A DNA stretch of 64,000 bases from an uncultured Acidobacteriota bacterium (GCA_963822445.1 CAWGHO010000001.1:1216001-1280000), one strand, 5' to 3'; positions 8,450-16,986 are shown, counted from the first letter of the stretch. Numbers and translations are program-made. The notes: generated by a model from the letters alone, not told the origin.

Positions 8450-9577
8450 ATGTACAGGGCCGCACTGCTTTTCGTCCTTCTCCTTCCCACGTTTGCATTC
8501 GCCCAGGGCCGCCGCGATGGCGACTGGCGTGAGTTTCCCGCGCAGAAAGGGTGCGTCGGCGGCAGCCGCTGCGCCGACAAGCGCTTCCGCATCGCGCTCG
8601 ATGACAGGCCGGTCATCGCCGTGCGATTCAGAGCGCATGATCAAATCGGCGAGACGGCCGGCGGCGTGTTGCGGGTGAAGATCGACGGCGACACGATCCG
8701 CGGCTACCTCGATATCCCCCGCGCCGGCGAGCTGTTCACGATCGACGTGGACGAGCTTCGCGGACGGCAGCTCGTGTTCGAGCCGGTCGCGAATGATGAA
8801 GTCGAGATCTCCGACATCGCGGTCATGTACAGCCGCGAGAATACGATCCGCCGCATCCCCGAGGCTCGTCGGGGCGGGCGGGGCGGCGGCGGACCGGGAT
8901 GGCGCTCGTATCCGAATGCCTCCGGTTGCATCGGCGGCGACGGCTGCCGCCAGAACGGCACCCGCATCACCATCCCTCTCGAAGAAGCCCCGGTCCTCGG
9001 CATCCGCTTTCACGCCCACGACAACGTCGGCAAACGCGCCGACGGCAAGCTGAGCGTGCGCATCGACGACACGACCATCGGCTGGTCGATCGACGTGCAG
9101 CGCAACGGCAAGCGCCATGACGTCGAGGTGGACAACGTCCGCGGCACGCGACTGGTGATCGAGACGGCGAACGACGACGAAGTCGAAGTCAGCGACGTCG
9201 AAGTGCTTTACGGCCGCCGCGGCGGAGTGGGCAGCAATGGCCCGCGCGAGATCGAGCACGAAGGCGGATGCATCGGCGGATCGGAATGCGGCGGCCGCCG
9301 CAATCGCATTCGCGTGGCCCTGCGCGATTACCCCGTCGAATCGATCCGCTTCTACGCCCGCGACGACGTCGGCACCAGGGCCGGCGGCGAGCTCCGCATC
9401 CGCATCGACGAGGAGATCCTCCGCGATTACCTCGACATCCCCCGCGAAGGCCGCACCTTCACCATCGACGGCAAAGGCCTGGTCGGCGAGTACCTGATCA
9501 TCGAGACGACCGAGGATGACGAAGTGGTGATCCGGGACATCAAGGTGAAGTTCGGGACGGGGGAGTACGACGATTAG
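8450..9577 (+). CDS. Secreted hypothetical protein with three ~100-aa tandem repeats
   Basis: Signal peptide MYRAALLFVLLLPTFAFA; three units GC[VI]GGxxC...RFxAxDxxG..A.G.L...ID...DEV.[IV].D. Confidence 0.8.
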   Translation: MYRAALLFVLLLPTFAFAQGRRDGDWREFPAQKGCVGGSRCADKRFRIALDDRPVIAVRFRAHDQIGETAGGVLRVKIDGDTIRGYLDIPRAGELFTIDVDELRGRQLVFEPVANDEVEISDIAVMYSRENTIRRIPEARRGGRGGGGPGWRSYPNASGCIGGDGCRQNGTRITIPLEEAPVLGIRFHAHDNVGKRADGKLSVRIDDTTIGWSIDVQRNGKRHDVEVDNVRGTRLVIETANDDEVEVSDVEVLYGRRGGVGSNGPREIEHEGGCIGGSECGGRRNRIRVALRDYPVESIRFYARDDVGTRAGGELRIRIDEEILRDYLDIPREGRTFTIDGKGLVGEYLIIETTEDDEVVIRDIKVKFGTGEYDD

Positions 9578-9888
9578 GGGCGCGGAGTTGATTGCGCGTA
9601 TCGCTACGGGCAATCCGGGTACGCGCCTGGATAAATCGCTTTTCCATTCTGGGGCGTGATCGCGTTCTGCAGGTAGGCGACTGAAGCGACAATTCCTTAG
9701 CCAGTTCAGATTGGCTTGAACACGCGCAATGATTGCAACCCCGCTCGCAAGAACCGCCTATACGTGCGACCAAAGGCGGTATGGCAGAGTGCCCATCCTG
9801 CTGCACCCGACCTTCGTAAGGCGCCGGTTTGGGCTGAGTCCCAAGGTGCACGCGTCGTACTTCAGAACAAACCGCACTTCTATACGCA

Positions 9889-9907
9889 GCCTAAATTCGA
9901 GTTATGC
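9889..9907 (+). other. attI-like integron recombination site
   Basis: GCCTAAA-TTCGA-GTTATGC has the L box/5-bp spacer/R box layout of attI1 (CCCTAAA-ACAAA-GTTRRRY) and sits directly in front of the attC array. Confidence 0.6.
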
Positions 9908-9948
9908 CGACGAACCGGAGAGTTAGCCAGACGTAAGATAAGCGACGC

Positions 9949-10569
9949 ATGAAATTGATTGCGATACTTGAATCATGGGTCATTCCCGACGGAAGTTACC
10001 CTCCATTCGCTGTCGGAATGCCGGTAAACCTGTCTTTCGAGATGGCAGTGCGACAGATCTCTATCAACGCCGCAGCTGAGGATTCGTTCGAATCGAATGG
10101 AGAGGGCGAGTACTCGTTTGCGGGCCGGGTTCTCGCAAAGTACAACGGTGGCGATCCGCTCGCGGTGGTCGAAGCAAGCGGGTTCCGCTTCTTCCTCGAA
10201 GGCACGCGCGCGCAGGAACTTCGCCCCGGTGAACGCGTTCAGGGACTAGGTTCTTTGGTGGTCGACTACTACATATGGGTCGAATACGTCAACGAACGTC
10301 GTGAGGCGCCGGACCTTTTCTACAACTTGGGCGTTCGCCGTATTCGGCGCGTCCAGATTCCGGATTCTCTCGTCAGCCGTCACGCCACAGGCAAGGCGCT
10401 TCCTGCCCGAGTCGCGCCATCGGAGTTCGGCGCAATCACCGAGTTGCAGACAATGGTCGGACAGGAATTTGACGAAGAGTTCTATCTCCTCGACCTAGAA
10501 ACGACCGATCTAGCAGTGCCGCGGACTTTCTCGGGTGAGCCCCGCGAGTTCCGCCTTGAACGCAGGTGA
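9949..10569 (+). CDS. Hypothetical protein (gene cassette cargo)
   Basis: 206-aa ORF starting 27 nt after the GTTAGCC core at 9922; visibly lower GC than flanking core genes. Confidence 0.75.
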   Translation: MKLIAILESWVIPDGSYPPFAVGMPVNLSFEMAVRQISINAAAEDSFESNGEGEYSFAGRVLAKYNGGDPLAVVEASGFRFFLEGTRAQELRPGERVQGLGSLVVDYYIWVEYVNERREAPDLFYNLGVRRIRRVQIPDSLVSRHATGKALPARVAPSEFGAITELQTMVGQEFDEEFYLLDLETTDLAVPRTFSGEPREFRLERR

Positions 10570-10624
10570 TCACGGATGAGCGTACTTGTGCGAAAATGCG
10601 TAATGCCAGCTGAGGTTCACACTG

Positions 10625-11002
10625 TTGGATTCCGCCGAGATTGAACGAGCTGTTTGGGTTGCGACAGGCGTCGCGGCAATCACCGCGGCTCTGCTCACAG
10701 TCGTTGTGTATTACCTTCAACAACTTACCGTCGCCACCACCGGCATGCGCGTGCTTGGCAGCGTTGCCGCTTTGCTTCTGTCGTTCGGCGTCTACATCTT
10801 TGCGGCAGTCGTATTTTCTATCGTCATAAACGCACAGTTGCGGCAGACGAGTTCCGAGGGAGCGTTGAGCGTGCCTTGGTCAACTGTCTTCATTCACCCA
10901 GGGCCCTTGCACAAACTGGCACCCCTCTTCGCAATAGCTGCAACTTGGGCAACTCTTGCTTTCGTCGCTAGGCGACACCGTTCGCGAGAAATCGCTGGCT
11001 AA
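10625..11002 (+). CDS. Hypothetical 3-TM membrane protein (gene cassette cargo)
   Basis: Three hydrophobic segments; TAA stop lies inside attC R'' (GGCTAAC), as is typical of cassette genes. Confidence 0.6.
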   Translation: MDSAEIERAVWVATGVAAITAALLTVVVYYLQQLTVATTGMRVLGSVAALLLSFGVYIFAAVVFSIVINAQLRQTSSEGALSVPWSTVFIHPGPLHKLAPLFAIAATWATLAFVARRHRSREIAG

Positions 11003-11934
11003 CTGTTGCGTCTCAGGACGTTGTTCCGATCCAGGCGACTGATGGGTGGATTGTAAGAGAGCGCGGTATGCGCTCGGTGGTAGTTGTAGAAGTGAAGGTA
11101 CGGTGCGAGCCAACGGCGCCGTTCCTCGGAGCTGTGGTACGAGAACCGATAGGCCCATTCGCGCAGCAGCGTCTGGATGAACCGCTCCGCTTTACCGTTC
11201 GTCCGTGGTGTGTACGGCCGGATGCGGACGTGAGTGAGGTTCAGGCGGCTGCAGGTATCCCGGAAGTCGCGTGAGATGAAGGCCGATCCGTTGTCGGTCA
11301 TCACCCGCTCGACGATGACATTCCGCTGAGCGAACCACGCCACCGCCCGAGTCAAAAACGAGCTGGCAGTCTCGCTACGCTCATCTGCCAGGACGTCGAC
11401 GTAGGAGAGTCGGGTGAAGTCATCCGTCGCGACGTACACGAACTCGAAGCCCTGCTTCTTTGAGCCAAACGATCGACGCCTGGTGATGCGGTGTCCCACT
11501 CGATTGAACCGTCCCAGGCGCTTGATGTCGATGTGCACCAGTTCCCCCGGACGCTCCTTCTCGTACCGAATTGGCACTGTTGCCGGCTCAAGCTGACGCA
11601 ACCGAGCCAGCCCTGCTGACCGGCAGATCCGCGCTGCTGTCGACGCACTCACGCCCACTGCCTGCGCGATCTGTCGCACAGTCCGCCATTCGCGGCGAAG
11701 ACTCAGAACACGCTGTCGTTTTATGTCGCTCGTGGCCCGGCCCCTGTGCGGTCTGGAGCTCCGATCGTTAAGCGGCTCGACCCTCAGACCACGACGGATC
11801 CACTCCCGCCCTCGCCGGTCACTCATACCGGCGGCCTCCGACGCCTCGCGCACCGACCATCCTTGTTCGCAGACTCGCTTGACCAGCAGTGCTCGACTCA
11901 ACGGGCAGCTTCGCGCATTCTTGTGCACGTCCAT
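10999..11934 (-). CDS. IS481-family transposase
   Basis: MDVHKNAR, PGELVHIDIK, VMTDNGSAF, PRTNGKAERF, YNYHRAH; stop codon supplied by the target duplication. Confidence 0.95.
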   Translation of the reverse strand: MDVHKNARSCPLSRALLVKRVCEQGWSVREASEAAGMSDRRGREWIRRGLRVEPLNDRSSRPHRGRATSDIKRQRVLSLRREWRTVRQIAQAVGVSASTAARICRSAGLARLRQLEPATVPIRYEKERPGELVHIDIKRLGRFNRVGHRITRRRSFGSKKQGFEFVYVATDDFTRLSYVDVLADERSETASSFLTRAVAWFAQRNVIVERVMTDNGSAFISRDFRDTCSRLNLTHVRIRPYTPRTNGKAERFIQTLLREWAYRFSYHSSEERRRWLAPYLHFYNYHRAHTALSYNPPISRLDRNNVLRRNS

Positions 11935-12037
11935 CTGGGTTCCTTCCTGTCAACCTGTTCGTTTGAGAGCTTTCAGATTGACGAAAGTCGCCCGGATGGA
12001 CAACCCGCTTCAAGGAACAACGTCCTGACACATCACA
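11004..12037 (-). mobile_element. IS481-family insertion sequence (1034 bp)
   Basis: TGT...ACA ends; 24-bp IRs TGTTGCGTCTCAGGACGTTGTTCC / TGTGATGTGTCAGGACGTTGTTCC (20/24); 6-bp TSD GCTAAC at 10998-11003 and 12038-12043. Confidence 0.95.
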
Positions 12038-12094
12038 GCTAACTACTGCCAGGAGCTGTCGGCGGGCCGTTCGCCGCGCCCGGCGGCCGAGCCG

Positions 12095-13424
12095 CATTCG
12101 CATTAAGTTAAGAGCCGGCGTACCCTAAGTGTATGAATCGACGGGTGGATGAGCGGGAGTGGATTCAGTATCAATGGGACTATCTGGTGGCGCTGCTGGG
12201 TGGCAAGCGGCGCATTGAGCGGCTGGCGTATGAGACCGGTGCATTTACGCGACGGCGGAAGGTCGATAGTCCAAGTGATCTGCTGCGTCTGATCTTCACG
12301 TGGGCGGTTGCCGAACGGTCGTTGCAAGAGACTGCGGCCTTGGCTGCCGAGTCGGAACTGGCGGATCTGAGCGCGCCCGCTCTGCTGGGCCGATTCTCAC
12401 AGGCCGAGGCGTGGCTCGGGGCAGTTCTGGGTGATCTGCTCGCTGCGCGGAGCGCGGTCACCTACCGGGTACCGACGTCCGGTTAATCGATGCCACCTCA
12501 ATCAGTTGCCGTGGCAGCAACAACACCGAGCGCCGGGTCCATCTCGCGCTGGATCTACGTACGAACCGCACCACAGCGGTCGACCTCTCTGACCGGCACG
12601 GAGGCGAGACGCTGGAGCGCTTTGTCTTTCGTCCAGGGGAGATCGTGATTGCCGATCGCGGATATGCGAAGCGTAAGGACGTTGCGCACGTGTCGCGAAG
12701 CGGTGCATGGTTTGTGATCCGGATCGGCTGGACCAACCTGCCGCTCGAGCATCTGGACGGGGAACCTTTCGACCTGATTGGAACGCTTGGCGGCCTCCCT
12801 GAGGCGGCGGCTGCAGAGTTTTCCGTTCAGATTCGTACGGCGAAGGATGCGTTGGTGCCGTGCCCTGGTGGCTGTACGGAAGAGCGAACCAGCCGCCGAG
12901 CGCGCACGGCAGCAGATCCTCGCCGACGCCCGACGGCACGGCAATCCGCAGGTCGACCTGCGCACACTCGAAGCCGCGGGGTGCATATTCGTCATCACCA
13001 ATTTGCCCAACGAGATCTCGCCGAGAGCGTGCTGGAGCTCTATCGCCTACGGTGGCAGATCGAGATCAAGTTCAAGACCCTCAAGTCCGTACTTCACCTC
13101 GGAAACCCGCCGACCCGAAGCGGCGAGCTGCTGAACGTTTATCTCATGGCGAAGCTGATCGTTGCGCTGCTGATCGAGGAGTTCATCTATCAGGCCGAGT
13201 CTATTTCCCCCTGGGGATACCCGCTCGAGGCCAATACAACCGTGGCGGCTGACGCGACTCCTGCTTGAAGCTGTGATCGCCGCAATCCGGCCAGTGCTGT
13301 CGCTGCGACTCCGCTGGAGTCGGCCCCTTCGCTGTTCCCGTCATCTTGCCCAAGCGAATAGAAGTCGACCAAACCAGCGCACGTCGGCACGCTACGTTAC
13401 TGGAGACATAAGTTAATGCGAATG
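12095..13424 (+). mobile_element. IS4-family (IS186/IS421-like) insertion sequence (1330 bp)
   Basis: IRs CATTCGCATTAAGTTA / CATTCGCATTAACTTA (15/16); 11-bp TSD CGGCCGAGCCG at 12084-12094 and 13425-13435. Confidence 0.92.
12133..13268 (+). pseudogene. IS4-family transposase, frameshifted (about 3 indels)
   Basis: IS186-like N-terminus (GAFTRRRKVDSPSDLLRL), then RLIDAT, IADRGY and YRLRWQIEIKFKTLKS; an internal segment lies in a different frame. Confidence 0.85.
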
Positions 13425-13977
13425 CGGCCGAGCCGCCTACCACGTCCCGCGATGCACGGCGTCACGCCGCTTGCAACCGCGTCAACGTCAAATGCGGCAA
13501 GCGGCGTGCCGCGACTGCTCGCTCGCACGTGGGGCCTCGCCGCAGCTCAGGCGATAGACGTTCGTCGAGAAGCACCCTTTCCATGAACGCTTCGTATCTC
13601 GCACGTTGAACGCGTGCGTGGCGCGGCGCCGCGCCCAGGCGACGCGGACGCACGACTTCCAACCGCGCACAATTCGCTCGATGAAATAGACGGAGGTTTG
13701 CGAATCGGTTCGGGCAACATGGCAAAGCGCCAAGCGCCCCATCGGTGGCATCTTCAATCTAGCGCATCTCACGCGATCACCCTACTGTCCGCATGCCATT
13801 CAAACCGCGCAATAGACGGCGACCTCTATCGTTGCGGTGGTCGCTAAGCCAGTGCGTCTATTGGTTATTCGGTCGACGAACACAAAAAGCTTAAGGTGGC
13901 TTTATGGGAGCCCGACCGCGCCTGACTCACGCCGCAGGCCGAGTGTCGGACGATCACATGCTATTCTTGATCTGCCG

Positions 13978-14511
13978 ATGCAGAGCTCGAGAGGCATAGT
14001 TGTACGTGCAGCGACTTGGGTGGTCGCGGCCTTCCTTGCTTCGGGGTTCCAATTTTCAACCTCCGCGCAGGAATCGCAGCGTCTCACGGCAAGCGATGCA
14101 TTCGCCATGTACTCATCGATGCTTGCCGAGATTTCACACGCGTCGCTCGACGACTTTAAAACTGTCATCGGCTTGCTTGAACGAGACGGCTTCCGAAAGG
14201 CGTCCGACAACTCCTGGCGTTTCCGAAACGAAAGCGGCAGCGTCGTCGTCGCCGCGTACCCAGAGCAGGGATCGTACTTTGTCTCGCTTGCGCCCAAGAA
14301 TACAGGTCCGTTCGGCGATGCTGCTCTGGCCGCCCTGATAGCCAAGGCGGAGGCAGTCATGCTCGACAGCGGCGGACAATCCATCGAGATATTGCTTCGC
14401 CGATCGAACCAGCAACGTCTTGGGAAGACCGTCGAGGTCAGCGAGTACATCTACGTCGCCCTGAATGGTGCCATCTGGTGGCGAACGTCACGCGCAATCG
14501 TATGGCGCTAA
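13978..14511 (+). CDS. Secreted hypothetical protein (gene cassette cargo)
   Basis: MQSSRGIVVRAATWVVAAFLASGFQFSTSA signal-like N-terminus; TGnTATTCT 10 nt upstream; stop 5 nt before attC 2. Confidence 0.6.
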   Translation: MQSSRGIVVRAATWVVAAFLASGFQFSTSAQESQRLTASDAFAMYSSMLAEISHASLDDFKTVIGLLERDGFRKASDNSWRFRNESGSVVVAAYPEQGSYFVSLAPKNTGPFGDAALAALIAKAEAVMLDSGGQSIEILLRRSNQQRLGKTVEVSEYIYVALNGAIWWRTSRAIVWR

Positions 14512-14516
14512 ACGCG

Positions 14517-14714
14517 GCATAACTACTGCCAGGAGCTGTCGCGGCCCGGCTTCGGTCCGCCGGCCGAGCCGGCTGCTTTTTCGCCAGAGGGACGGCGTCA
14601 CGGCGGTTGCAGGTCGCCACTCGCTGCATCGCAGTTCATTGGCGGCAACCGCCGCGCCGCTCCGGCTTCGGCGCGCGGGCCCTGGCCGCGCAGCTCAGGC
14701 GATAGACGTTAGCC
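14517..14714 (+). other. attC-like site 2 (intact, 198 bp)
   Basis: R'' GCATAAC, 5-nt spacer, L'' CCAGGAGC ... L' GCTCAGG, R' GTTAGCC; arms GAGCTG(T)CGCGGCC / GGCCGCGCAGCTC pair; inner stem CGGCGGTTGC / GCAACCGCCG. Confidence 0.88.
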
Positions 14715-14813
14715 TGACACCGAGAGAGAGCGCCAGAACTCATACTTTCGAGCGCCGCATCCCGATGACGTACTCGTGACGTAAGTCTCGGCACTCGTGT
14801 AAGATCGTTCGCA

Positions 14814-15038
14814 ATGCCACAAGCCTTCGACACCTCGCCGCGCGCAGCAGCCGTACACGCCCAGCTCTATCGTGACATCGGCCCAGCGAAGCGAGCTGAA
14901 ATCATGGCGGAGCTCAGCGACGCGCTACGAGATCTCGCTGCGGCCGGCGTCCGGCGACGACATCCTGAGTACGATGACGAGCGTGTTCGAAAAGAAGTCC
15001 TCGCGGTCTTCTATGGCCGCGGTCGAACGTCGCTGTGA
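14814..15038 (+). CDS. Small helical protein, putative antitoxin-like partner (cassette cargo)
   Basis: 74 aa (DTSPRAAAV..LYR....KRAE); GTGA overlap with the nucleotidyltransferase; TAAGAT 8 nt upstream. Confidence 0.7.
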   Translation: MPQAFDTSPRAAAVHAQLYRDIGPAKRAEIMAELSDALRDLAAAGVRRRHPEYDDERVRKEVLAVFYGRGRTSL

Positions 15039-15592
15039 GCCTCCGAGACGCTTTTCGAAACATGCGAGATGCTCTTGAGGAGCTTGGAATACCGTACATG
15101 GTGACGGGTTCCGTCGCGAGCTCCGTGCACGGTGTTCCGCGAGCTACTCAAGACATCGATGTGATCATCGAGCCGACACGTGACCAGCTAGTTGCGCTCT
15201 TAAACAGGTTTTCCGAACCAATCTACGACGCCGATCGCGACGACGCTTTGGATGCTCTCAATCGACGATCAATGTTCAGCGTGATCGATCGCAGAGGCAT
15301 ATGGAAGATCGACTTCATCGTTCGCAAGCAGCGTCCGTTCAGTAAGAAAGAATTTGACCGACGGGTGAGAATCGATATTCTCGATGTTTTAGTGTATTCG
15401 GCGACACCGGAAGATGTACTCCTTGCAAAGCTCGAGTGGGCGAAATTGGGTGAATCCGAACGCCAGATCCGTGATGCTGCAGGCATCATCGAAATTCAGG
15501 GCGAGAAGCTTGACCGTGAGTATGTGGAGCGGTGGGCCGCAGCCCTGGATATTGAGGATCAATTGCACGCAGCACGAGCAAAGGCAGGCTAA
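15035..15592 (+). CDS. Pol-beta-superfamily nucleotidyltransferase (cassette cargo)
   Basis: YMVTGSVASSVHGVPRATQDIDVII (GS + DxD), TPEDVLLAKL, RQIRDA; stop lies in attC 3 R''. Confidence 0.8.
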   Translation: MSLRDAFRNMRDALEELGIPYMVTGSVASSVHGVPRATQDIDVIIEPTRDQLVALLNRFSEPIYDADRDDALDALNRRSMFSVIDRRGIWKIDFIVRKQRPFSKKEFDRRVRIDILDVLVYSATPEDVLLAKLEWAKLGESERQIRDAAGIIEIQGEKLDREYVERWAAALDIEDQLHAARAKAG

Positions 15593-15767
15593 CTACTGCC
15601 CGAGGCTGTCGGAGAGCCGTCTGCCGCGCCCGGCGCTGAAGCGCCTCGTGAAGCGTTGCTTGCCCGCGGAAGGCCGGCCATCCCTACGCGCCACGGCGCC
15701 GAGGAGCGCGCCACGCAAACCCTACCCACGCGGAACCTCGCCGCATCTCACGCGTTAGACGCTGGAT
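15587..15767 (+). other. attC-like site 3 (degenerate)
   Basis: GGCTAACTACTGCCCGAGGCTGTCGG ... CCTCGCCGCATCTCACGCGTTAGACGCTGG, homologous to sites 1 and 2 at both ends with several substitutions. Confidence 0.7.
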
Positions 15768-15819
15768 TGCCCTCGATTCCGATAGCATCGAGCCCCGTAG
15801 CCGTCAGGGAGGGAGAAAG

Positions 15820-16986
15820 ATGACGTACCGCGTTCTTATATTCACCTTGCTCGCGCTCTGCGTGAGCGCAACCGCCGCGTCGCAGCCGGTCGTCGTCGGG
15901 CAAAGCCACCGCCTTCGTTCATCGGTCCTGAACGAAGACCGCACTTACCGCGTTCATCTTCCGGCGAGCTATGGATGGGCGAAGGATCGGCGATATCCGG
16001 TTCTGTACGTGCTCGATGGCGCGACGCATTTTCTGCACACGTCCGGGTCCGCCGGCTATCTCGCGGCGCAGGGCGAGATCCCGGAAATGATCGTGGTTGC
16101 GCTCGACAGCACCGTCCGGATCAGAGACTTCACCCAGTCGGACTGGTCGAGCGCATGGGTTGGAGGAGGGGGCGCGGCGAACTTCAAGCGCTTCCTTTCC
16201 ACCGAGCTCATTCCGAACATCGAGCGCGCTTATCGCACCAACGGGTTCCGCGTGCTGGCCGGCCACTCCGCCGGTGGACAGTTCGTCCTGTACTGCCTCA
16301 CCTCCGAGCCGTCTCTCTTTCAGGCCTACATGGCGTTCAGCCCGAGTCTCGACTGGGACGACAACCTGCCCCAGAAATCGCTGGCCAAATCGTTCGACTC
16401 GACGCGCTCGCTGAAGGCGTTTCTGTACGTCGCGCGATCGGATGATTCCGGCCGCGCATTGGAGGATTACGACCGGCTGGTGGAAACCCTGAAAACGAAA
16501 TCGCCGCAGGGATTCCGCTGGCACAGCCAGCCCTATCCTGACGAAACCCACGGCAGCATTCCTTTGCTCGCACAGATCGATGCCCTTCGCCGACTGTACT
16601 CCGGTTACCGGTTTCACGGAGACCTGGTGTCGAAGGGCCTCGACTTCGCGGAGAAGCATTTCGAAGAGGTCTCCAGGACCGTGGGATGGCCTCTGCCCGT
16701 TCCCGAAAGCGTGATCAACGATTTCGGTTACGACGCGCTGGCGGCGGGGAAAACGGAAGCTGCCATTACTCTCTTCACGCGCAACGTTCTGGCGAATCCG
16801 AATTCCGCCAACGCCTACGACAGTCTGGCGGACGCGTATGAAAAGGCGGAGAACTGGAAAGAAGCGGCAAAAGCAGCAGAGAAAGCCGCCGCTCTGGCTA
16901 TAGAGTTCGACCTTGCCAACCGGGAGTACTTCATTCAGCACGCCGCAAAAATGAAGGCCCGGCTCGAACAGGAATCGAAACCATGA
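15820..16986 (+). CDS. Secreted alpha/beta hydrolase (IroE-like esterase) with C-terminal TPR
   Basis: YPVLYVLDG, GHSAGG nucleophile elbow, ETHGS, NPNSANAYDSLADAY TPR; GGAGGGAG RBS. Confidence 0.88.
   Translation: MTYRVLIFTLLALCVSATAASQPVVVGQSHRLRSSVLNEDRTYRVHLPASYGWAKDRRYPVLYVLDGATHFLHTSGSAGYLAAQGEIPEMIVVALDSTVRIRDFTQSDWSSAWVGGGGAANFKRFLSTELIPNIERAYRTNGFRVLAGHSAGGQFVLYCLTSEPSLFQAYMAFSPSLDWDDNLPQKSLAKSFDSTRSLKAFLYVARSDDSGRALEDYDRLVETLKTKSPQGFRWHSQPYPDETHGSIPLLAQIDALRRLYSGYRFHGDLVSKGLDFAEKHFEEVSRTVGWPLPVPESVINDFGYDALAAGKTEAAITLFTRNVLANPNSANAYDSLADAYEKAENWKEAAKAAEKAAALAIEFDLANREYFIQHAAKMKARLEQESKP

Follow-up and report, generated by a model that had tools for sequence, protein, structure and literature searches.

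We report here an integron cassette that, as read from its sequence, is nested inside another cassette in an uncultured acidobacterial genome, with the crossover at G|TT. The two cassettes, termed A (inner) and B (outer), belong to a three-cassette array in the window (the whole 64,000-nucleotide stretch that was analysed, G000:C1:1216001-1280000, from an assembly of three contigs). We hold the nesting to be real because four independent lines agree: the match between each cassette start and its own attC site, a start-site weight matrix, a blank search for any further attC, and the collinearity of a leader sequence across the rejoined parts of B. All four concur with the cassette inside a cassette that had been proposed in an earlier, sequence-only reading of this DNA. 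The explanation that we favor, with a probability of roughly 0.7, is a one-off insertion at a secondary site mediated by the integron integrase (IntI), later frozen by two insertion sequence (IS) elements in attC1, the attC site of A.

The features of the nested pair are as follows (ORF, open reading frame):
9888-9909, plus strand: attI-type core, the 5' boundary of outer cassette B (GCCTAAATTCGAG|TTATGCCG, crossover 9901|9902).
9902-9922, plus strand: first 21 nt of B, parted from the remainder of B by A (leader profile positions 1-20).
9908-9922, plus strand: left half of the target palindrome (left arm CGACGAAC at 9908-9915, spacer CGGAGA at 9916-9921, crossover G at 9922).
9923-13560, plus strand: inner cassette A, with ORFs 9949-10569 and 10625-11002 and attC1; its start GTTAGCCAG matches the R'' CTGGCTAAC.
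13561-14708, plus strand: remainder of B, with the right part of the leader (about 13561-13612), ORF 13978-14511, and attC2 (14515-14708).

Cassette boundaries were read with an attC profile built from the genome's own sites (122 hits, 100 of them full-length and 99 with an identifiable R'' AAC) and with a start/R'' rule, in which the G and the first bases of a cassette are compared with the reverse complement of its own R''. Among the 88 cassettes lying between consecutive attC sites, a match of at least 9 nt was found in 84 (exactly 9 nt in 82, 10 nt in one, and 11 nt in one). In three of the four remaining cassettes, the R'' of the attC is split by an IS of the IS481 family; the fourth is the cassette at C2:2191930 (C2 is another contig), which has a replaced 5' end. 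The rule does not hold trivially: comparisons between unrelated starts and R'' sequences reach 9 nt in 959 of 7,656 cases, owing to a few 9-mers that are common. All cassettes of the main integron on C2 show strict 9-bp complementarity between R'' and R', after which comes a mismatch that is conserved (A opposite G in 70/84). The exceptional C2:2191930-2192813 duplicates C2:2120747-2121610, with the first 19 nt swapped for 39 nt of the start of another cassette; it is a deletion-type fusion, not a nesting.

Applied to the window, the rule placed both boundaries of the pair. G9901|TTATGCCG is the reverse complement of the attC2 R'' CGGCATAAC (14515-14523), and G9922|TTAGCCAG is that of the attC1 R'' CTGGCTAAC (10995-11003), each with a 9-nt match. 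The sequence-only reading was thus exact to the base in stating that the unit at 9901 matches the R'' of attC2 and not that of attC1, and that a second unit, 21 bp on, matches that of attC1. The start demanded by the attC2 R'', GTTATGCCG, corresponds to the R'' 9-mer of only 1 of the 99 attC sites; with both strands counted, the 6.0-Mb genome has 19 occurrences of it, of which the window contains just those at 9901 and, as the complement, at 14515. The sequence at 13560 after attC1, GTTCGTCGAG, mismatches the attC2 R''. The next cassette start in the array, at 14708 (GTTAGCCTG), is assigned by the rule to attC3, the attC site of cassette C. We also derived a weight matrix from 74 unique cassette starts and scored it over 132,399 genomic GTT sites. 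Position 9901 scored 7.2 (top 9e-4) and position 9922 scored 12.0 (top 3e-4); position 13560 scored -19.9, the median, and therefore 13561 is the interior of a cassette and not a start. With all filters off, the attC profile found nothing in 13561-14100 or in 9400-10100 except the end of attC1 itself; this search is profile-based, and an attC of a foreign type in 13561-13900 was ruled out by eye alone.

The fourth line is a leader of about 70 nt (GTTAGGCCGACGAATCAC...GCGCGCTTTCCATGA...CTGCACG) found directly after the boundary in at least 12 cassettes with unrelated cargo. Against a profile of ten leaders, rejoined B aligned over positions 1-69 with 16.3 bits, rank 3 of 81 sequences. Interrupted B gave two separate pieces, the left one at positions 1-17 (4.2 bits) and the right one at positions 29-69 (8.2 bits). 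The joint of 9922 with 13561 parts leader position 20 from position 21, neither overlapping nor leaving a gap; the two parts of B were once contiguous. Copies of the leader are found, for example, at C2:2128463-2128535, C2:2209370-2209443, and C2:2210608-2210682, and in the window at 9901-9922 and 13561-13612. A conserved protein start was considered for the leader and rejected: the ATG-led frames have 3-159 codons and are mutually unrelated, as are most of the cargo ORFs. No Rfam family was found in 9000-16500, and the leader has neither an Rfam match nor a conserved ORF. A promoter carried by the cassettes, or a leader with a regulatory role, is a possible identity for it.

In silico excision of 9923-13560 regenerated CGACGAAC-CGGAGA-GTTCGTCG, the perfect 8-6-8 inverted repeat with the crossover at G|TT that the sequence-only reading had described. 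The right-arm sequence TTCGTCG now lies at 13561-13567. Both junctions carry a direct repeat of GTT and no other target duplication (GAG|TTAGCC and GACG|TTCGTC). The left arm is a common motif of cassette starts: after the 9-bp R' box, AC follows in 71 of 84 cassettes, ACGAA (+10 to +14) in 19, and ACGAAC in 5. The right arm retains the local R-box invariants G5 (88/88) and C7 (86/88). The earlier suggestion that this 22-mer is a minimal simple site, either attI-like or a collapsed attC, was not supported. It lacks the core of the resident attI (AAAT at -8 to -5 and A at -1), reading ACCG at -8 to -5, and between its CGAA and the crossover G there is one base more than the attI cores have; as a collapsed local attC it was rejected, since it consists only of two R-box-like arms and a 6-nt spacer and 9400-10100 gave no profile hit. 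Its best fit is with the secondary or attG sites: it lies outside attI and attC, and its triplet is of the GNT/GWT form, with the crossover directly behind the G (GAG|TTC when rejoined). The perfect symmetry would set two inverted half-sites around an 8-bp crossover region at 9915-9922.

Cassette A is interrupted in its attC1 by two IS elements, and the pieces are as follows:
10995-11003, plus strand: attC1 R'' CTGGCTAAC, cut from the remaining attC1 by IS1.
11004-12037, minus strand: IS1, of the IS481 family, with a transposase at 10999-11934 on the minus strand and the target duplication GCTAAC at 10998-11003 and 12038-12043.
12044-12094, plus strand: middle piece of attC1, from an nhmmer hit and the reconstruction.
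12095-13424, plus strand: IS2, a single-copy element with a DDE_Tnp_1 transposase in broken frames and the 11-bp duplication CGGCCGAGCCG at 12084 and 13425.
13425-13560, plus strand: 3' part of attC1, ending in ...CAGCTCAGGCGATAGACG, with the R' G at 13560.

The full attC1 is recognizable only once both elements are removed. After removal in silico, it is 193 nt long and matches profile positions 2-199 with 130 bits; because it can be reconstructed to full length in this manner, A was formerly a normal cassette with exact G|TT ends. The site ends in ...GATAGACG at 13560 and is followed by TTCGTCGAG. The two ORFs of A (9949-10569 and 10625-11002) have no Pfam family. IS1 matches the Pfam families LZ_Tnp_IS481, rve, and rve_3, and its four copies in the genome all lie directly after [G/C]CTAAC in an attC R box. 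These copies (window 11004-12037; C2:2203358-2204391, 2211841-2212874, and 2220434-2221467) are 99.9-100% identical, three in R'' and one inverted in R', each with a 5-6-bp duplication. The element looks like an attC-targeting DDE element, of a family different from the known IS1111-attC group.

The three attC sites are of one family and lie between a gene for a secreted repeat protein (ending at 9577) and an esterase gene (starting at 15820). Their conserved 5' part (AACTACTGCC...) is found at 12041, 14521, and 15591, and the conserved 3' part (...CAGCTCAGGCGATAGACGTT) at 13543 and 14691; attC2 scores 167 bits with the profile and has its R' G at 14708. No tyrosine recombinase was found near the array and no intI adjoins 9901. 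Only one gene of the genome scored above the cut-off of TIGR02249, the model for integron integrases, at C2:2118113-2119048 (456 bits), and it is intact, with an open frame of 321 codons and no stops. The protein aligned over its full length with chain 2a3v_A (deposited as site-specific recombinase IntI4; 315 bits), and the alignment contains active-site blocks such as HTFRHSFATHLLE and MIYTHV. The array downstream of this gene (C2:2120563-2226593) has about 95 attC sites on the same strand as intI. As a whole, C2:2118113-2226593 is a large chromosomal integron in the 'inverted integrase' arrangement, and its attC sites, about 95 in number, are homogeneous and roughly 190 nt long. The attC sites of the genome are repeats with 83-95% identity, and attC1 to attC3 belong to the same family as those of the main array (identity up to 95%). 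Because there is no local recombinase and the only intI is on contig C2, we regard the window array as an integrase-less cluster (CALIN); the genome that contains it also has a large and apparently functional chromosomal integron.

The 5' boundary of B at 9901 had been taken for an attI. We found a core of the attI type there and no integron platform, the sole IntI-family gene being at C2:2118113-2119048. The motif AAAT-N3-A-G|TT is common to this boundary, the main attI (C2:2119406), and two other integrase-less arrays, and it is rare, occurring at 34 of the 132,399 genomic GTT sites. Position 9901 has the core geometry of the resident attI and no adjacent intI gene. Four of six left boundaries of arrays, the true attI included, carry the motif (window 9889-9903; C2:2119394-2119408; on the minus strand near C2:481133 and C2:493883). 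Upstream of these four boundaries, no extended similarity beyond that of shuffled controls was found. The distribution suggests that short attI-like cores, which are scattered through the chromosome (34 motifs in the genome), serve the integrase as points for seeding arrays.

From these observations, the history of the array may be proposed as follows. The three-cassette array would have been built by the genome's own integron integrase, encoded on another contig. B (9902-9922 plus 13561-14708) would have entered at the attI-type core at 9901. The folded attC1 of circular cassette A would then have recombined with a GTT, in double-stranded form, in the leader of B, 21 bp from the boundary, in an attG-like insertion with the crossover after G9922. 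The left arm at this site would be the ordinary start motif (C/G)GACGAAC, and the repeat could offer two inverted half-sites for the integrase around the 8-bp crossover region. Later, the IS481-family element would have inserted into the R'' of attC1 and an IS4-like element into its center. Because these elements hit both the R'' and the center of attC1, A is no longer excisable. In this proposal, the agency of IntI, the use of the site as duplex DNA, the order of events, and the occurrence of a single accident are inferred.

Several points weigh against a secondary-site insertion. The right arm is a poor match to the R box, with a matrix part-score of -8.3, and T6 and A9 are each found in none of 88 starts. 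The site reads CGAG at +6 to +9, where the asymmetric attG consensus would have CRGM; that motif was defined for IntI1 in Escherichia coli and may not apply here. An intact attI-type core only 21 bp upstream would be the expected preferred target. The bypassing of this core by A might mean that the nesting arose elsewhere and that the pair arrived together. The perfect 8-bp mirror far exceeds the needs of an accidental secondary site. Neither an empty site nor an excision product was observed, and therefore the pre-insertion sequence is a reconstruction. One further feature is unaccounted for:
13873-13881, plus strand: the arm motif in a third copy, TCGACGAAC, which repeats 13560-13568 in inverted form over 9 nt at a distance of 304 nt and conforms with 13560 to the 9-nt rule (by chance, about 0.03 such pairs would be expected within B).

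The empty junction had been proposed as a check, and we sought it in reads, contig collections, and relatives without finding it. A search of sequencing runs with 13561-14514 listed no run. The unchanged 24-mer 9901-9924 had no match in the metagenome_contigs collection, and the unchanged 22-mer 13561-13582 had none in genome_contigs and one in metagenome_contigs; the latter lies in an unrelated coding region with no similarity past the 22 bases and was judged to be due to chance. No protein relatives of the B ORF were found in genome_contigs. Among 60 relatives (G002 and G025 included), 9578-9948 had no DNA match, and 13561-14514 had none except a weak 33-nt hit in one. The downstream esterase of same-genus genomes is at most 42% identical, which is too distant for comparison of the flanks at the base level.

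Searches for recurrence were likewise negative. In about 130 kb of arrays there is no AAC-N3-9-GTT palindrome with arms of at least 7 bp, and there is no palindrome in the 15 intact leaders elsewhere in the genome, which all start directly at an attC R' G and are not split; the same site, which the earlier reading had proposed to look for at the 5' ends of homologous cassettes, is missing there. Of 400 other genomes of the phylum, one has the arm-N6-arm pattern, there with another spacer and at about chance level. Among 132 cassettes (88 here and 44 in six related genomes), no further case of nesting came to light. Of those 44, 35 obey the rule with at least 8 nt. The nine exceptions comprise single mismatches (four cases), a short attC that was missed (one), tandem TAAC/GTTA repeats at the R box (two), an attC lost beside a remnant judged by eye to be IS110-like (one), and a replaced start (one). 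A nested-looking signature in L029 was rejected: its attC is the one lost beside the remnant, whose translated N-terminus looked IS110-like by eye, and the R'' that matches is that of the final cassette in that array. The tandem repeats in the relatives, at L028 about 12620-12646 (CTAACTTAACTAACTAAC) and at L033 4338-4350 (GTTAGTTAGTTAGG), may have been left by IS excision or by slipped recombination at the crossover.

The claim that B carries a dedicated landing pad, a reusable core site for IntI at which cassettes nest, travel as composites, and seed arrays away from the platform, is accordingly unsupported and improbable, also as a general route: it stands on a single instance, without recurrence in the 132 cassettes. 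Its attractions are the perfect 8-6-8 repeat with AAC/GTT cores and the crossover exactly at G|TT (palindromes of the type AAC-N3-9-GTT with arms of at least 7 bp number 53 in 6.0 Mb and hence account for at most 106 of the 132,399 GTT triplets), the resemblance of its left arm, a conserved start motif, to the L-box side of the resident attI (GTCGAAAT versus GACGAAC), the use of the palindrome rather than of the attI-type site 21 bp upstream, the third motif copy at 13873 in a register that obeys the rule, and a GTT at about the same leader position in 5 of 13 leaders, B included (by reading the sequences). The absence of the palindrome from the other leaders and arrays, the chance-level pattern among the 400 genomes, the missing AAAT, the extra base between CGAA and the crossover G as compared with attI cores, and the failure to find an empty or re-used site or another nested cassette all speak against it. 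A mechanistic form of the idea, in which the conserved start motif (C/G)GACGAAN is an inverted half-site that was mirrored 6 nt downstream in B, perhaps by templated correction of a quasi-palindrome, so that a symmetric duplex core was preferred over the site at 9901 and composites could move, seems to us similarly improbable. Less probable still is that 13561-13881 is or was a separate cassette, with TCGACGAAC at 13873-13881 as its R'', the palindrome being accidental and the array running remnant, A, this cassette, and B, with later deletions. The perfect 9-nt pair of GTTCGTCGA at 13560 and TCGACGAAC at 13873 favors it, as do additional ATAGACG motifs (13686, 13812, 13855) and short repeats like the 3' parts of attC. 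This was the case that had been named as refuting the nesting, and it fails on several counts: 13560 is an average GTT site in the start matrix (-19.9), the attC profile at maximum sensitivity is blank downstream of 13881, the start GTTATGCCG needed for the next cassette occurs only at 9901, and the leader profile is continuous through the rejoined junction. We also count against it the figure of about 0.03 such 9-mer pairs expected by chance within B (arithmetic from motif counts).

The same third copy can be read as the trace of an inverted mini-element, a unit of about 328 bp (9915-9922 plus 13561-13880) flanked by the 8-bp direct repeat CGACGAAC at 9908 and 13874, which would have entered the start motif of B in inverted orientation through the bottom-strand GTT, carrying a minimal site of the form R''-6 nt-R', into the other arm of which A later entered. 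Its bottom strand starts with GTTCGTCGA, ends with TCGACGAAC-N6-GTT, and obeys the 9-nt rule. We give this no better odds than the separate cassette, as the top-strand leader is collinear across 9922|13561, so that 13561-13612 is native leader of B; the bottom-strand start at 13881 scores -8.4 (top 7.6% of GTT sites), and the genome has no other copy. The least credible reading is an artefact or a rearrangement without IntI, by misassembly through attC repeats, IS shuffling, or ordinary deletion. The attC repeats are indeed 83-95% identical, A contains two IS elements, and the cassette at C2:2191930 with its replaced 5' end is a precedent for rearrangement. Nevertheless, both joints are exactly at G|TT, the sequence after 13560 is unlike what follows any other attC, and a misjoin would not restore both the palindrome and the leader; each IS element is flanked by a target duplication of its own within attC1 and touches neither joint, and the assembly is in only three contigs. 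We retain the secondary-site insertion.

Other observations concern B and its neighbor. The B ORF (13978-14511) has a start that resembles a signal peptide, and the region ahead of this likely start is unusually long (417 nt). This region (13561-13977) contains an internal repeat in two copies, TTC[C/A]AACCGCGCA...ATAGACGG, some short repeats resembling the 3' parts of attC, a hairpin with a 9-bp stem at 13810-13863, and the ATAGACG motifs. It may be a decayed attC or cassette debris; the attC profile gives no confirmation of this. Folded as one long hairpin, 13555-13890 had a z-score of -0.30 and is not structured. The third cassette of the array is as follows:
14709-15761, plus strand: cassette C, with ORFs 14814-15038 and 15035-15592, then attC3.

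The second of these ORFs encodes a DUF6036 nucleotidyltransferase (Pfam; 185 amino acids) and is overlapped by the first (74 amino acids), a layout reminiscent of a toxin-antitoxin or defense pair. The R' position of attC3 (window 15754-15763) reads GACG|CT and not GACG|TT, which could be a point mutation or the footprint of the first insertion of the array at a non-GTT target; GTTAGAC lies 7 nt upstream of it.

On this reading, the nested pair is a clean natural case of an integron integrase putting one cassette inside another. A and B share one outer boundary, and their joint excision via attC2 would be possible in principle. Nesting is an extra route to composite cassettes, besides the loss of attC that gives fused cassettes. 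The start/R'' rule can flag nesting automatically in large chromosomal integrons, which would yield a natural catalogue of off-target sites for integrases that no bench work has yet addressed. Should the symmetric site turn out to be a good substrate, it would be the smallest integron target so far defined and a handle on how integrases read duplex DNA.

Integron integrases normally take a folded single strand as one partner. The dif site of XerCD and the loxP site of Cre have two inverted binding arms around a crossover region of 6-8 bp; the palindrome resembles them in form only, with no sequence relation. The attI simple site is described as an L box, a spacer, and an R box (attI1, PMC12901181). 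The palindrome would be like it in being double-stranded with two inverted half-sites and a crossover at G|TT, and unlike it in lacking AAAT, in its perfectly symmetric R-box-like arms, and in having no adjacent intI; no upstream direct repeats were identified. In delta-attI-type cassettes, a truncated attI replaces the 3' attC (Partridge 2009 via PMC12901181; Gonzales Machuca et al. 2026). The case of A and B shares with these and other atypical cassettes a non-attC site usable by IntI on a cassette and an IS-disrupted attC. It differs in that the extra site of B is in the 5' leader, is present besides an intact attC2, and bears no sign of derivation from the resident attI. The closest likeness is to secondary sites. 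For IntI1, secondary or attG sites with a GNT/GWT triplet are established targets of cassette insertion and are used as duplex DNA (bioRxiv 10.1101/2022.09.11.507474; PMC10127599), with an asymmetric consensus GWT+CRGM (Loot et al., bioRxiv 10.1101/2022.09.11.507474), and such insertions go back to Francia 1993 and Recchia & Hall 1995 (as referenced in PMC10127599). The possible seeding of integrase-less arrays in this way is also an established idea (PMC4889954; bioRxiv 10.1101/2022.09.11.507474). As in those cases, an attC-bearing cassette lies here precisely at G|TT outside attI and attC, at a target without an attC fold and off the canonical site. Unlike in known attG insertions, the target is inside the leader of another cassette, so that nesting results, and is a perfect 8-6-8 inverted repeat; the integrase, too, is unlike IntI1, being an uncharacterized acidobacterial IntI in the same orientation as its array. 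In the full-text literature covered, which leaves out most subscription journals and all supplements, we found no cassette nested in the leader of another at a symmetric site. We read the case of A and B as an insertion at a secondary site that happens to be located within a cassette, and this type of insertion is itself already known.

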